DNA of 64,000 nt from an uncultured Armatimonadetes bacterium (GCA_963771575.1 CAVYTV010000002.1:126317-190316), one strand, 5' to 3'. Positions 9,349 to 12,147 are shown, counted from the first letter of the stretch. Notes: generated by a model not told the origin, from the letters alone. Translations and numbers: made by a program.

Positions 9349-12147
9349 ATGCCTTCCAGGATCAGCAGTTGGAGCTGGGCGAAGAGGAAAGCCTCACCGC
9401 CCTGCGCCGGGCCTGGGAACGGGACCCTGCGCGCCCTGGCTGGAACGCTAAACAAGCAGACGATTGACAACTGGCTGCGCCCGCTCAAGCCGCTGTCCTA
9501 CAGCCCCCCGATTGTTGTCCTGGGCGCCCCGTCGTCGTTTGCCCGCGAGTTCGCCGAAAAAAAGTACGCGCAGCCGCTGGCCCAGCTTCTGGCACAGTAT
9601 CTGGACATTCCGAGCGTGCAGGTGCGCTTCGTCATTTCCACGCCGGATGTCCAGCCCCTGCTCGGCGAAAAGCCCCTGCCCTTGCAGCAGGCCGCCTCCC
9701 CCCTAGCCGGCCCACGTCACACCGCGCCGCCCGTGCCTTCGCCGTCCAACGAGTTGGCGCTGCCGGTTCTCGCGTCGCAGACCACGCTGCCGCTGGCCCC
9801 GGACAGCAGCGTCAACGGCAGCATAGACGGCAGCGGACGCGCCAGCCGCAACCCGTTCACGCTGGAACTGTCCGCCTCGCCCCTCAACGCCCGCTACACC
9901 TTTGACAACTTCGTCGTCGGCAAGTCCAACCGTCTCGCCCAGGCCGGAGCGGTCCACGTCGCCGAAGCGCCCGGTAAGATGTACAATCCCCTGTTTTTGT
10001 ACGGATCGCCAGGTTTGGGAAAGTGTGTCGCCGCCTCCGAGTATCTGCATTTGGCCGACGGCCGCCGCGTCCAGGCCGGGGAATTGATCGGCACAGAGTT
10101 TTCCCTGCTCACCCTCGCCAAAGAGGAACTGCGCGCGGTTCCGGCACGGGCGGAGTTTAACGCCATTGAGCCGGTCTTCGCGATCCAGACGGAAAGTGGT
10201 CGTCGGATCGTCCGAAATCGGCAGCATCCGCTCTGGGCAGCCAATGGGGTTGAGCGGTGGGGCAAAAAGTACGATCTCATCCATGTTCGCGGCTGGAGAC
10301 CACTGGGCGAACTTCAGCCAGGCGATCTGGTCGCCGTGCCGGAGAGGCTTCCTGCCTTCGGCGATCCCGTTCCGCTTCCAGAGCATGAGATTAAGCTGTT
10401 AGCCTATCTGATTGGTGACGGCGGATTTACGCAGCCCTGTGTTCGCTTCAGCCAGCAGGATAATCTACAGCTTGCCGAGTTCAAGGAGTGCGTCACCCTG
10501 ACAAACTGCCGCATGGTTCAGCATAACAAATACGACTGGCGAATTATCGGTAAGCGAGGCCGGGTGGCACATGGCAAGGACAGCCGTAATGATGTCATGA
10601 ATCTTCTGCGAAGGCATGAGTTGATGCTGACGCATTCGCGGGACAAACGCATTCCTTCAGCCATATTCCGGCTGCCCCGGGAGCAGTTGTGCCTGTTCTT
10701 ATCACGCCTGTATGCGACCGATGGCTGGGCTTCCTGCGGCCCGGAGCGGCAGATCGGCAAGCGGCTTCCGCGTACTGAAATCGGCTTCTGCTCGGCTTCG
10801 GAAGGTCTTGTTAGGGACTTGCAGGAGTTACTGCTGAAGCTTGGGATCATGGGGCATATTTCGCGCAAGGCCAAAGTCAACGCCTGGACCATTGCCATTC
10901 ATGCCGCCTCCGAGGTCACCAAATTCGCGGCTATGGTGGGCATCTTCGGCAAGGAAGACGCCGTGGAGCGCGTTCGGCAGGTTGCGGAAAAAGCAAAACA
11001 GAATCTTCCTAATCGCGGGCTTTGGCGGCATCGGAACGCGCCGACGGGGATGCGCTGGGAAAAAGTGGTTTCGGTAGCGCCGGCGGGCATGGAGCCAACG
11101 GTTGCCATTGAAGTGCCGGAGTATCAGACATTTCTGACGACATTCTGGGAGCATAACACGCACCTTATGCACGCCATCGGGCATCAGATACGGCTGGCGA
11201 TGCCGCAGGCGCGGGTGGCATATGTCAGCGGGGAGACGTTCACCAATCATTATGTGGCGGCGATCCGGGACAAGCGGACGGAAGATTTTCGGCGGGCGTA
11301 TCGGAACGTAGATGTCTGGCTGGTGGATGATATTCAAACGCTGGCCTCCAAAGAGCAGACCAAAGAAGAGTTTTTTCACACGTTCAACGCCCTGCATCAG
11401 ATGAACAAGCAGATTGTCCTGAGCAGTGACCGCAGCCCGCGCGAACTGCGGGCGATGGATGAGCGCCTCTGGTCGCGCTTTGAGTGCGGCCTGGTCGCGG
11501 ACATCGCGCCGCCGGAACTGGAAATGCGCGAGGCCATCCTGCAAAAGAAAGCCATTTTGGAAAGCATGCTGATTTCCGACGAAGTCATCGCGTTCATGGC
11601 AAATTTGATCCAAAGCAACATTCGCGCTCTGGAAGGCGCACTGATCAAGCTGATGGCCTATGCTTCACTCACCCGCAGCCCGGTCACCAAGCAGCTTGCT
11701 TCCGACGTTCTGAGCGGCTACTTTGTGGATCGGCCCCCGCCGCGCGAGCCGGTGTCCGCCCACCCGGAAGACCATGCCAGGCCGGCCCTTCCTGCGTTGA
11801 CGGCGCCGGCGTCCCCGGTCGGCCCGGCAGGCCATGCCGTGGATCAAATTATTGCGGCAGTGGCCCATCAGACCGGCGTGGAGCTGGCGTTGATTCTGGC
11901 CGGCGGCGGGCGCAGCAACCGGGCCAATCGGCTGCATGGCGACGCGGGATTCGCGCGTCAGGTCGCGATGTACCTGGCCAAGGAGATGGGCAGCGTGCCG
12001 CTGACCACGCTGGCGGCGACATTTGGCCTGAAGAGTCACACCGCGGTTGTGCATGCCCACGCGCGGCTGGCGAAAGAAATTGAGGATGACCCGCAGATTC
12101 TATCTTTGATCAGCAAGATTCGGCAGGAAATTGAGCGTGGCGGCTAA
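9349..12147 (+). CDS. dnaA: Chromosomal replication initiator DnaA, intein-containing. The true start may be GTG 9300, with a +1 indel near 9420.
   Basis: N-terminus LNKQTIDNWLRPLKPL; AAA+ core FDNFVVGKSNRLA..LFLYGSPGLGK[intein]THLMHAIGH..VWLVDDIQ..NKQIVLSSDR..SRFECGLVADI; domain IV ARQVAMYLAKE..FGLKSHTAVVHAH. Confidence 0.92.
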   Translation: MPSRISSWSWAKRKASPPCAGPGNGTLRALAGTLNKQTIDNWLRPLKPLSYSPPIVVLGAPSSFAREFAEKKYAQPLAQLLAQYLDIPSVQVRFVISTPDVQPLLGEKPLPLQQAASPLAGPRHTAPPVPSPSNELALPVLASQTTLPLAPDSSVNGSIDGSGRASRNPFTLELSASPLNARYTFDNFVVGKSNRLAQAGAVHVAEAPGKMYNPLFLYGSPGLGKCVAASEYLHLADGRRVQAGELIGTEFSLLTLAKEELRAVPARAEFNAIEPVFAIQTESGRRIVRNRQHPLWAANGVERWGKKYDLIHVRGWRPLGELQPGDLVAVPERLPAFGDPVPLPEHEIKLLAYLIGDGGFTQPCVRFSQQDNLQLAEFKECVTLTNCRMVQHNKYDWRIIGKRGRVAHGKDSRNDVMNLLRRHELMLTHSRDKRIPSAIFRLPREQLCLFLSRLYATDGWASCGPERQIGKRLPRTEIGFCSASEGLVRDLQELLLKLGIMGHISRKAKVNAWTIAIHAASEVTKFAAMVGIFGKEDAVERVRQVAEKAKQNLPNRGLWRHRNAPTGMRWEKVVSVAPAGMEPTVAIEVPEYQTFLTTFWEHNTHLMHAIGHQIRLAMPQARVAYVSGETFTNHYVAAIRDKRTEDFRRAYRNVDVWLVDDIQTLASKEQTKEEFFHTFNALHQMNKQIVLSSDRSPRELRAMDERLWSRFECGLVADIAPPELEMREAILQKKAILESMLISDEVIAFMANLIQSNIRALEGALIKLMAYASLTRSPVTKQLASDVLSGYFVDRPPPREPVSAHPEDHARPALPALTAPASPVGPAGHAVDQIIAAVAHQTGVELALILAGGGRSNRANRLHGDAGFARQVAMYLAKEMGSVPLTTLAATFGLKSHTAVVHAHARLAKEIEDDPQILSLISKIRQEIERGG
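10024..11157 (+). mobile_element. Class 1 intein with a LAGLIDADG homing endonuclease, inserted in the DnaA P-loop (GLGK | THL)
   Basis: Starts with Cys (CVAASEYLHLADGRRV). Block-B-like VRNRQHPLW. LAGLIDADG motifs LLAYLIGDGGF and LSRLYATDGWAS. Ends VAIEVPEYQTFLTTFWEHN with a +1 Thr. 1134 nt, in frame. Confidence 0.85.

Follow-up and report, generated by a model that had tools for sequence, protein, structure and literature searches.

The dnaA gene in the window (the whole 64-kb stretch of DNA that we analyzed, from a bacterium of the family Capsulimonadaceae, Armatimonadota) is interrupted within the Walker A motif of its product by an in-frame insert. We hold, at a probability of about 0.88, that this insert is a mobile intein, made up of a Hint splicing domain and a nested LAGLIDADG homing endonuclease, and that it persists as the selfish parasite of a homing cycle. 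It is most likely such a parasite and not a needed part of the initiator; because close sister species do without it, the intein appears to be dispensable. The type of element is well known, and DnaA is, as far as we searched, an apparently undescribed host for it.

The insert and its splicing residues

The open reading frame that includes the insert spans positions 9349 to 12147 on the + strand (932 aa), and the insert itself occupies 10024 to 11157 (+), comprising 378 codons in frame that encode a 378-aa segment from Cys1 to Asn378 (aa 226-603 of the ORF). A preliminary description of this DNA had reported a 378-aa insert within Walker A of a 932-aa ORF, with an N-terminal Cys, an NRQH block, two LAGLIDADG motifs, a terminal His-Asn, and a Thr at +1, and we found every one of these items in place. 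The junctions read MYNPLFLYGSPGLGK / CVAASEYLHL at the N-terminal side and TFLTTFWEHN / THLMHAIGHQIRL at the C-terminal side, with the Lys and the Thr of the DnaA Walker A motif split by the insert (GSPGLGK/C…HN/THLMHAIGH, slashes marking the insertion points). Cys1 (10024-10026, +), the N-terminal splicing nucleophile of block A, was present in 48/48 members of the intein family and in 11/11 DnaA inteins, and His377 and Asn378 were likewise unchanged in all 48. All family members have Thr or Ser at +1; in the DnaA copy studied here the residue is Thr (11158-11160, +), which unites in one residue the roles of C-extein nucleophile and Mg2+-binding Walker A Thr. An orthologous insert without Cys1, His-Asn, or Thr+1 had been named beforehand as evidence that would speak against an intein, and none was seen: all ten complete orthologous inserts keep these residues, and the partial insert of L020 keeps Cys1.

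Two positions depart from the canonical pattern. Block B reads N-R-Q-H (intein aa 65-68; 10216-10227, +), so that of the TxxH motif of class 1 inteins the His is present as His68, conserved in 48/48 members, and the canonical Thr position is taken by Asn65. The preliminary description regarded this Asn as an oddity of the present copy that could slow splicing. Across the lineage, Asn is instead the consensus at this position (Asn in 41, Thr in 5, and Ser in 2 of the 48 members), which makes it a conserved lineage variant and no lesion of this copy. The second departure lies in the C-terminal splicing domain, blocks F and G, which runs from 11014 to 11157 (+) and ends in His377-Asn378 (defined by alignment to blocks F-G of the Ssp DnaB mini-intein; dN/dS ~0.10). 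In one HMMER pairwise alignment to that mini-intein, the block-F Asp (F:4) pairs with Ala361, an Ala in 44/48 members; a conserved Glu363 lies two residues further on, and Glu376 is invariant. As the Asn and Ala departures are both shared by the family at large, they would point to a variant chemistry rather than to a dead copy. Assignment to class 3 was considered and is ruled out by Cys1; the F:4 equivalent is Ala, G:5 is Glu376, and the Trp(B:12)-Cys(F:4)-Thr(G:5) triplet is missing.

Since the Pfam Intein_splicing profile gave only a weak match (18.3 bits, below its cutoff of 35.8), identification of the insert relied on NCBIfam models of intein-containing proteins and on structure. Of the profile matches that the preliminary description proposed to look for, the Hint match in Pfam thus fell short; PRK07773, the model of intein-containing DnaB, matched intein aa 1-330 with E=1.2e-38, the intein-containing RecA and GyrA models matched with E=3e-13 and 4e-12, and Pfam LAGLIDADG_3 (PF14528) reached 38.1 bits (cutoff 22.5). 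The AF2 model of the intein had a pLDDT of 91.1 and a pTM of 0.91. Its top Foldseek match was TliVMA (7qsu; E=5.5e-18, TM 0.67/0.69), and the other best matches were the endonuclease-bearing inteins PhoVMA, PI-PkoII, PI-PfuI, and PI-SceI, with a Foldseek probability of 1.00 against TliVMA, PI-PfuI, PI-SceI, and the Ssp DnaB mini-intein. Model and Foldseek matches together give the splicing domain a Hint fold. Its N-terminal half (~aa 1-117; 10024-10374, +) consists entirely of beta strands in the AF2 secondary structure, matches the Ssp DnaB mini-intein and the Mtu RecA intein in sequence, and has a dN/dS of ~0.10.

The LAGLIDADG homing endonuclease follows at ~aa 118-330 (10375-11013, +). This part of the model shows the helix-strand pattern typical of the fold and matches PI-PfuI, PI-SceI, I-DmoI, and I-Tsp061I in Foldseek. 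Motif 1, LLAYLIGDGGF (aa 125-135; 10396-10428, +), keeps the catalytic Asp132, which is Asp in 42/48 family members, and motif 2, LSRLYATDGWAS (aa 226-237; 10699-10734, +), keeps the catalytic Asp233, which is Asp in 46/48. Retention of both residues, together with a dN/dS of ~0.09 for the endonuclease among full-length copies, is compatible with activity of this copy, and we infer that the enzyme may well be active. A tblastn search found no further intein copy in the 64-kb window. The profile matches, the high-confidence fold, and the seamless spliced product described below support the insert as a genuine class 1-type intein with a nested LAGLIDADG homing endonuclease, as the preliminary description had proposed.

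The host gene and the spread of the intein in Capsulimonadaceae

The N-extein (9300-10023, +) comprises domains I-II and the start of the AAA+ domain III up to the Walker A residues GSPGLGK, as defined by Pfam DnaA_N and Bac_DnaA and by orthologue alignment. The C-extein (11158-12147, +, including the stop codon) supplies the rest of domain III, with Walker B (VDDIQ) and the sensor motifs, and the domain IV helix-turn-helix (Pfam Bac_DnaA and Bac_DnaA_C; 8btg alignment; dN/dS 0.07-0.08). All three Pfam matches, DnaA_N, Bac_DnaA, and Bac_DnaA_C, were above cutoff and covered domains I, III (AAA+), and IV (HTH). The TIGR00362 DnaA model scored 394 bits with the intein in place and 421 bits after in-silico splicing (cutoff 343.9). 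The in-silico spliced DnaA is 554 aa long and aligned to Bacillus subtilis DnaA (8btg) without a gap over the junction through GLGKTHLMHAIGH, reading ynplflygspglgkthlmhaighq against ynplfiyggvglgkthlmhaighy in 8btg. The seamless GKTHL junction predicted for a deletion of the insert was thus obtained.

The 932-aa ORF itself is present as previously described; its first 25 aa (MPSRISSWSWAKRKASPPCAGPGNG), which begin at the ATG at 9349, are out of frame and do not belong to DnaA. The conserved N-terminus, starting from a GTG at 9300 (VSSHPT…LTALRRAWER), lies in the other frame owing to a 1-nt indel in a GGG run at 9421-9423 (+), which holds one G more than all orthologues in a DNA alignment with L001, L002, L004, and L011. 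Removing one G there yields a continuous 948-codon ORF from GTG 9300. The extra G stems either from a homopolymer error in the assembly or from a mutation that is very recent; if real, the frameshift might impair this dnaA allele. The intein is unaffected by the frameshift. The gene order is dnaA-recF-WD40-dciA, with no dnaN in between. Matches near the DnaA box consensus numbered 7 in the 64-kb window, compared to 5.3 expected, and were uninformative for placing oriC; no clear GC-skew switch was seen in the 64 kb, and the attempt to place oriC was dropped.

GTDB species genomes supplied 22 dnaA loci of Capsulimonadaceae/Armatimonadota; the intein occupies the identical site in 11 of them, and in the other 11 GLGKTH(L/A) is uninterrupted. 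A survey of related genomes for intein-free dnaA alleles, suggested at the outset, thus found them in sister species: these alleles read GLGKTHLMHAIGH, the site GLGKTH(L/A)xHAIGH is intact, and the 11 intein-free alleles of Capsulimonadaceae share a conserved empty site, GGn-AAr/ACn-CAy. Intein-bearing and intein-free alleles are interleaved in the tree, and L004, with the intein, and L012, without it, are 91.7% identical in AAA+ DNA. The intein tree and the extein tree show the same groupings, suggesting that descent of the intein within Capsulimonadaceae has been mostly vertical. Identity per 60 nt between intein-plus and intein-minus sister pairs gave no clear co-conversion gradient near the junction.

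Walker B and sensor motifs are intact in the intein-bearing alleles, and the median dN/dS of the AAA+ extein was 0.079 in intein-bearing vs. 0.056 in intein-free alleles, both indicating strong purifying selection; the intein subdomains gave ~0.09-0.10. These dN/dS values are rough, with dS near saturation, and medians were used, the mean dN of intein-intein pairs being inflated by a 2-aa indel in L010. The host dnaA of intein-bearing alleles thus appears to be functional. As the P-loop of the precursor is split, the strong selection on these exteins is indirect evidence for splicing. The endonuclease has fared differently among the orthologous inteins: its first half is missing in L008, L009, L010, and L020, while L001 and L005 have Asn and Gly, respectively, in place of the first catalytic Asp, so that it seems to be decaying in six lineages. 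Presence and absence of the element, fixed splicing residues, and endonuclease decay together look like a textbook homing cycle.

The 48 members of the intein family, whose hosts include at least three unrelated proteins, have invariant splice-junction residues. Relatives at 46-56% identity are all inserted after GK and before T or S, in DnaC-like helicase loaders (phrog_50) and terminase large subunits (phrog_2), the latter including one on the viral contig L082; one intein-bearing DnaC-like loader, P0001, adjoins a DnaD-like gene. The DnaA inteins were monophyletic in 100/100 neighbor-joining (NJ) bootstraps, and therefore a single invasion of dnaA, in an ancestor of Capsulimonadaceae, seems to be implied. 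In the NJ tree, the DnaC-like loader inteins adjoin the DnaA inteins with a support of 6/100. We dropped them as an exclusive sister group on account of this value, and the donor host is uncertain for the same reason. The host jump was presumably directed into dnaA. No donor was found among cultured-phage GenBank records, which held only distant relatives at 23-28% identity.

A probable homing cycle and its alternatives

Under the parasite reading, dnaA would be translated as a ~105 kDa precursor in which the ATP site is physically split. This precursor would then splice. An N-S acyl shift at Cys1 would be followed by trans-esterification to Thr+1, cyclization of Asn378 assisted by His377, and an O-N shift that would yield the normal GSPGLGK-THLMHAIGH P-loop; only spliced DnaA would bind ATP and act as the initiator. 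The free intein, now or until recently, would cut intein-free dnaA at GGn-AAr/ACn-CAy, and repair would copy the intein in. It would most likely have come from the same GK/THL site in a P-loop ATPase of phage type, whether a terminase or a DnaC-like helicase loader. Entry would have been followed by mostly vertical inheritance, several precise losses, and endonuclease decay in several lineages. The earlier claim that replication initiation depends on protein splicing would, by inference, hold for this allele; it does not extend to a need of the organism for the intein, which sister species lack. The splicing dependence is best understood as a constraint imposed by a parasite rather than as regulation by design.

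It is unlikely that the intein has instead been domesticated as a conditional switch, responding to redox state, metal, temperature, or DNA damage, that gates replication initiation post-translationally to the benefit of the host. Equally doubtful is the form of this idea in which the splicing rate would set the supply of active DnaA in Capsulimonadaceae through an environment-sensitive gate such as Cys1 oxidation or metal binding. The intein does sit in the catalytic center of the master initiator, where modulation of splicing would hit initiation directly, and conditional splicing has been reported for DnaB and RadA inteins. It has also been kept through the divergence of many species with a dN/dS of ~0.1, and in L008-L010 despite loss of the endonuclease; purifying selection is expected anyway, however, since only clean splicers survive in an essential active site. 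The clustering of inteins in P-loops and replisome proteins has been argued by Novikova et al. 2016 (PMC4760082) to suggest selective retention, but endonuclease decay with patchy loss is the standard pattern of a selfish element, the intein is absent from one half of the sister species sampled, near-identical neighbors included, and no sensor feature was found in it. The chemistry of the block B Asn and block F Ala could be tuned for control.

Less probable still is the proposal that the dnaA of the window is decaying or non-functional, with another initiator gene elsewhere, so that splicing would be unneeded. This proposal would fit the 1-nt frameshift that the window, unlike all orthologues, shows at 9421-9423, and the fact that only 64 kb of the genome is in view, but one base too many in a run of G is the kind of error typical of assemblies, the remaining 2.7 kb form an uninterrupted ORF with all DnaA and intein motifs intact, and the same in-frame intein-bearing architecture recurs in eleven independent assemblies whose exteins are under strong purifying selection. 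The gene moreover lies in an origin-type cluster, dnaA-recF-dciA, and in the dnaA locus search of GTDB species genomes each complete chromosome yielded a single dnaA locus. We give almost no credence to the insert being an assembly chimera or a permanent domain that does not splice (a degenerate intein or bacterial intein-like domain), as its weak Pfam Intein_splicing match and the non-canonical residues in blocks B and F might suggest. A retained Lys-Thr split of Walker A is incompatible with ATP binding, the splice-junction residues are invariant over 48 members in at least three unrelated hosts, and precise intein-free alleles exist; a chimera is ruled out, since 11 independent assemblies share the insert at one and the same codon.

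DnaA among the known intein hosts

The preliminary description suspected that DnaA is not a standard intein host, and our search of the literature and of representative clusters bears this out. No earlier report of a DnaA intein was found in the searchable literature, where the papers that mention both DnaA and inteins either employ inteins as tools or deal with DnaB. DnaA is absent from the text and the top-15 lists of Novikova et al. 2016 (PMC4760082). Among the best 150 of 21,869 matches in a set of 1.84 billion representatives, the DnaA intein formed a single cluster. Sixteen long DnaA-like proteins among those 150 were considered as other intein carriers; the fifteen longest have an intact G(L/V)GKTHL and are tandem-DnaA or long-domain-II proteins.

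Inteins cluster in replication proteins (DnaB, DnaE, DnaX, MCM, RFC, and polymerases), and whether this reflects parasitism of conserved sites or a regulatory benefit is debated (Novikova et al. 2016, PMC4760082). The present intein adds DnaA to these hosts at its most sensitive position, between the Lys and Thr of the P-loop, in the protein whose ATP-bound form licenses replication. If it is merely a selfish element, the result is a tidy new host record and no new principle. Capsulimonadaceae constitute a natural experiment: the otherwise ~90%-identical dnaA genes of closely related species have the intein in full, have it with a broken endonuclease, or lack it. Their comparison bears on whether splicing limits or conditions initiation, on jumps of inteins between paralogous AAA+ hosts via GKTHL, and on precise loss. 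A Thr+1 intein that tolerates several P-loop contexts may also be of use in protein engineering.

The best structural matches are the VMA inteins (PI-SceI; TliVMA, 7qsu; PhoVMA, 7qst), which share the Hint and double-motif LAGLIDADG architecture, the Foldseek E-values of the PI-SceI entries lying at around 1e-9 to 1e-11. They differ in having 11-17% sequence identity to the DnaA intein, an archaeal or yeast origin, and V-ATPase subunit A as host, and PI-SceI has an extra DNA-recognition region. Similar in setting are the P-loop inteins of DnaB site b, MCM site a, and RFC-S site a (Novikova et al. 2016, PMC4760082), which are likewise class 1-type, often with a LAGLIDADG endonuclease, and lie inside the Walker A motif of ATPases that act in replication. 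Like DnaA, MCM and RFC are AAA+ proteins, whereas DnaB is a RecA-like ATPase; MCM and RFC are archaeal, and the DnaB inteins are detectable relatives of the DnaA intein (25-39% identity). The host sets the present case apart from all of these, being the initiator DnaA.

Inteins of terminase large subunits (phrog_2; P0052-P0057, P0011, and the viral contig L082) belong to the same lineage, with 48-56% identity and the same insertion point, GK/T or GK/S, in a host that is, unlike DnaA, a phage packaging ATPase. P-loop inteins have been described in mycobacteriophage terminases. The closest non-DnaA relatives in the word-indexed search were inteins of DnaC-like helicase loaders (phrog_50; P0001-P0009, P0061), at 50-53% identity over the full length; we know of no publication on intein-bearing loaders of this kind. 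They sit at the same GK/THL position, in proteins of the AAA+ clade that is sister to DnaA, and also have the block-B Asn and a C-terminal F(W/Y)EHN in common with the DnaA intein. Their hosts are phage-type or accessory proteins, in contrast to the essential chromosomal initiator DnaA, and the organism of the window has DciA instead of such a loader.

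An intein between the Walker A Lys and Thr of DnaA

The dnaA ORF (9349..12147, + strand; 932 aa as read) carries an in-frame insert of 378 residues at 10024-11157 on the same strand (ORF aa 226-603), whose translation begins with CVAASEYLHLADGRRV and ends with FLTTFWEHN, and which is flanked by …MYNPLFLYGSPGLGK before and THLMHAIGHQIRL… after. Coordinates and translation agree with the preliminary description of an insert that splits the DnaA P-loop. When the insert was excised in silico, as that description had proposed, the remaining 554-aa DnaA scored 421 bits on the NCBIfam equivalog TIGR00362 (cutoff 343.9) and aligned without a gap across the junction with the solved B. 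subtilis DnaA 8btg ('ynplflygspglgkthlmhaighq' in the excised product vs. 'ynplfiyggvglgkthlmhaighy' in 8btg), confirming that the host protein is seamless at the Walker A Lys/Thr.

The insert had been described as an intein with a nested LAGLIDADG endonuclease, and this identification held. Pfam LAGLIDADG_3 matched at 38.1 bits (cutoff 22.5), and Intein_splicing matched weakly, at 18.3 bits, below its cutoff. The NCBIfam model of intein-containing DnaB, PRK07773, matched insert residues 1-330 (E=1.2e-38), and those of intein-containing RecA (2.7e-13) and GyrA (4e-12) matched as well, each via its intein part. A PDB-chain sequence search with the insert returned the Mtu RecA intein, the Ssp DnaB mini-intein, and PI-PkoII. 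A confident AlphaFold2 model made from 21 family sequences (pLDDT 91.1, pTM 0.91) predicts a beta-rich domain (residues 1-~117 and ~331-378) wrapped round an alpha/beta domain. The best Foldseek match of this model in the PDB was TliVMA (7qsu; E=5.5e-18, TM 0.67/0.69), followed by PhoVMA, PI-PkoII, PI-PfuI, and PI-SceI, all endonuclease-bearing inteins; ranked lower were I-DmoI and other free LAGLIDADG enzymes, along with the Ssp DnaB mini-intein. On the strength of the profile, PDB-sequence, AlphaFold2, and Foldseek matches, the insert is a Hint splicing domain into which a double-motif LAGLIDADG endonuclease is nested, and both catalytic Asp residues of the endonuclease (Asp132 and Asp233) are kept. 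An intein-type Hint plus LAGLIDADG element sits between the Walker A Lys and Thr. Its GC content is lower than that of the host dnaA (0.583 vs. 0.630), as is its GC3 (0.67 vs. 0.74-0.82).

Near the 5' end of the gene, DNA alignment showed that the run at 9421-9423 (GGG) has one G more than in four related dnaA loci (L001, L002, L004, and L011), and the conserved DnaA N-terminus (GTG at 9300, VSSHPT…LTALRRAWER) is out of frame with the remaining dnaA. Because the extra G shifts this N-terminus to another frame, the 932-aa ORF opens with 25 spurious residues; deletion of one G yields a 948-codon ORF colinear with the orthologues. The extra G is either a homopolymer error of the assembly or a frameshift that arose very recently.

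On its 3' side dnaA is followed by recF (12577-13707), a gene for a WD40 beta-propeller protein (13704-14720), and a DciA-family gene (14705-15328; PF05258, 66.7 bits), and no dnaN lies between dnaA and recF in the window. This is an origin-type cluster that encodes DciA rather than a DnaC/DnaI loader, and this ancestral helicase operator, DciA, seems to be the one on which the organism relies. Elsewhere in the window there is a c-di-GMP-I riboswitch aptamer (55946-56050, + strand; RF01051, 65.2 bits vs. a gathering score of 35).

Related dnaA alleles with and without the intein

A scan with the precursor as query, in which a single genome stood for each GTDB species, yielded 22 close dnaA loci, which with one exception (L021) came from MAGs labelled Capsulimonadaceae, Armatimonadales, or Armatimonadota. 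Identity between the window protein and those of the 22 loci reaches at most about 80-87%, so its organism is a further species of Capsulimonadaceae. The intein was present at the identical codon, in frame, in 11 loci (L001-L010 and L020, the last a partial copy that ends at the contig end). Two complete chromosomes, OZ255718.1 and OZ241338.1, are among the intein-bearing ones. The survey of related genomes called for in the preliminary description also recovered intein-free alleles: the remaining 11 of the 22 (L011-L019, L021, and L022) have an uninterrupted GLGKTH(L/A)xHAIGH, as in the empty site …GGCTTGGGAAAA|ACGCACGCAATG… of L011 or L012. Cys1, Asn65, His68, the C-terminal FWEHN, and Thr+1 were constant in every complete DnaA insert, including the Cys1, His-Asn, and Thr+1 on which the earlier identification had turned. 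The first LAGLIDADG half is deleted in L008 (317 aa), L009 and L010 (302 aa each), and L020, and motif 1 is altered in two other copies, with LIGDGG replaced by LIGNGG in L001 and by LIGGGG in L005. All nucleophiles and His-Asn are conserved, sister species have empty sites, and decay affects the endonuclease but spares the splicing residues.

Two of these loci had peculiarities of their own. L021 (JBPBQB010000218.1) is labelled Janthinobacterium lividum, yet holds an intein-free Capsulimonadaceae-type dnaA whose product is 79% identical to the window's DnaA, and is probably a mis-binned contig. The stop-to-stop ORF of the intein-bearing L006 (CBDIDS010000003.1) spans only 2555 of its 2720 matched bases, pointing to a frameshift or a premature stop close to the 3' end of the gene.

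Neighbor-joining trees of exteins and inteins gave identical groupings, (WIN,(L001,L002)), (L004,L009), (L005,(L003,L006)), and (L007,L010), where WIN is the window copy. The DnaA inteins formed one clade in 100/100 NJ bootstraps, and dnaA appears from these sequences to have been invaded once. Intein-free and intein-bearing alleles are interleaved in the tree as close sisters; for instance, the intein-bearing L004 is 91.7% identical in DNA to the intein-free L012 across 540 nt of the AAA+ domain, and slightly less so, at 90.7%, to L009, which also has the intein. The simplest reading is one ancient invasion and mostly vertical descent, with five or more precise losses since then, or else re-invasions by the inteins of close kin.

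We estimated dN/dS by the Nei-Gojobori method, with dS near saturation and the values accordingly rough. Medians were about 0.10 in the N-terminal splicing part of the intein, 0.10 in its C-terminal part, 0.09 in the endonuclease domain of full-length copies, and 0.07 in the AAA+ extein adjoining the intein. Because the AAA+ exteins of intein-bearing alleles are under strong constraint (median dN/dS 0.079 vs. 0.056 in intein-free alleles), we infer that intein-bearing dnaA must yield an active ATPase; Walker B (VDDIQ) and downstream motifs are intact in all of these alleles. The Walker A Lys and Thr have established roles in P-loop ATPases, and since they are 378 residues apart in the precursor, an active product would require splicing. 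Between species, the intein has diverged more at synonymous sites than the exteins have (mean dS about 1.8 vs. about 1.1), which, with the lower GC3, may reflect weaker codon bias or some exchange of the intein between species.

The wider lineage, its hosts, and the source of the dnaA intein

A search of 5.8 billion proteins returned 49 relatives of the insert. Two were DnaA fragments at 76-78% identity (P0012 and P0013, the latter named 'DnaA/Hda family protein [Armatimonadota bacterium]'), and the best full-length relatives, at 50-53% identity, came from proteins 580-660 aa long whose AAA+ domain is of the IstB/DnaC-like type. The matched protein P0001 is a DnaC-like helicase loader by PHROGs (phrog_50, E=2e-57), and its gene lies directly after a DnaB_2/DnaD-like gene. 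The matches listed from an exhaustive search of 1.84 billion representatives included dozens of further proteins of 830-1330 aa that matched only over the intein (39-56% identity), most of which match phrog_2, the terminase large subunit; one such terminase-type protein, encoded on the viral contig L082, contains a copy that is 51% identical.

Walker A G-K stands immediately before the intein in 38 of 41 delimited family inteins, and Thr or Ser directly after it in all 41. Across 48 tabulated family sequences Cys1, His68, Glu376, His377, and Asn378 are invariant; Ala occupies the position aligned to the block-F Asp in 44 of them, and a Glu occurs two residues on in 37. The preliminary description had been concerned by an Asn at the block-B Thr position, but this residue is the norm of the lineage, as 41 of the 48 sequences have it. 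The lineage is a P-loop specialist with slightly unorthodox catalytic accessories. Two terminases, P0055 and P0065, each have two inteins of this lineage. The second intein of P0065, like that of P0133, is inserted elsewhere (…SKF|C…HN|SGKH), which means that the lineage can use at least one other insertion point.

DnaA and an intein of this lineage occurred together in a single 50%-identity cluster, P0050 (905 aa, 1364 bits), among the best 150 representative matches, and database names do not flag the intein. Long DnaA-like proteins among the best 150 matches were considered as other carriers, and the P-loop was intact in all 15 examined of 16. In the representative search, P0068, P0111, P0172, P0070, and P0076 each had two complete DnaA AAA+ modules per polypeptide and are unusual tandem-initiator architectures; in P0070 and P0076 (1876-1990 aa) there is also a Glu/Ala-rich spacer, very long and resembling a coiled coil, and the N-terminal domain bears no relation to domain I of DnaA.

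The suspicion that DnaA is not a standard intein host agrees with the literature covered. The phrase 'DnaA intein' had no occurrence in ~8 million full texts from outside the subscription journals, and literature on inteins with DnaA, replication initiator, Walker A, or P-loop concerned inteins as tools or other hosts. The largest intein census consulted lists DnaB, RNR, PolIII alpha, RecA, GyrA/B, DnaG, PolIII gamma, and others as hosts, stresses P-loop insertions for DnaB, MCM, and RFC, and does not mention DnaA in its text (Novikova et al. 2016, PMC4760082).

In the NJ tree the DnaA inteins adjoin those of the loaders, but an exclusive DnaA plus loader clade had a support of only 6%, which leaves a loader as no more than a candidate donor. 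At the DNA level, the site in a loader locus (L081) and that in dnaA have a common core, GGn-AAr|ACn-CAy-yT, with 9-15 of 20 central nt matching, and ectopic homing could plausibly have occurred through the common GK|THL motif. The presence of DciA, not DnaC/DnaI, in the window cluster would be consistent with an origin of the intein in a phage-borne loader or terminase.

Splicing, homing, and rival explanations

The precursor would be unable to bind ATP. Splicing would proceed from a Cys1 acyl shift through Thr+1 attack and Asn378 cyclisation to an O-N shift, regenerating GLGK-THL, and the freed window intein, with both Asp kept, would cut intein-free dnaA, whose repair would copy the intein in. 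The element is most probably a selfish passenger, tolerated by virtue of clean splicing. Domestication of the intein as a conditional switch on initiation is disfavoured, given that many sister species are intein-free and that the signature of the homing cycle is ordinary. Nothing but the 1-nt frameshift suggests that the window copy of dnaA is non-functional, and selection, synteny, and the ten further orthologues that are intact contradict it. The evidence likewise contradicts both an assembly chimera and a domain that stays in place permanently without splicing: the insert splits the P-loop, its junction residues are invariant, and it recurs in eleven independent assemblies.

We conclude that the intein is real and well formed and that the literature searched does not describe DnaA as a host; the finding would be of note to specialists in inteins and in replication initiation. 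The series of alleles with, without, and with decayed inteins in one bacterial family makes the question 'parasite or regulator' directly testable for an initiator. What is new is the host, DnaA, and no new principle is demonstrated; the element is of a known kind at a site of a known kind (P-loop, GK|T). The nearest solved structures to its model are the endonuclease-bearing inteins TliVMA, PhoVMA, PI-PkoII, PI-PfuI, and PI-SceI, and its close relatives at 50-53% identity reside in DnaC-like loaders, whereas the dnaA cluster of the window organism has DciA.
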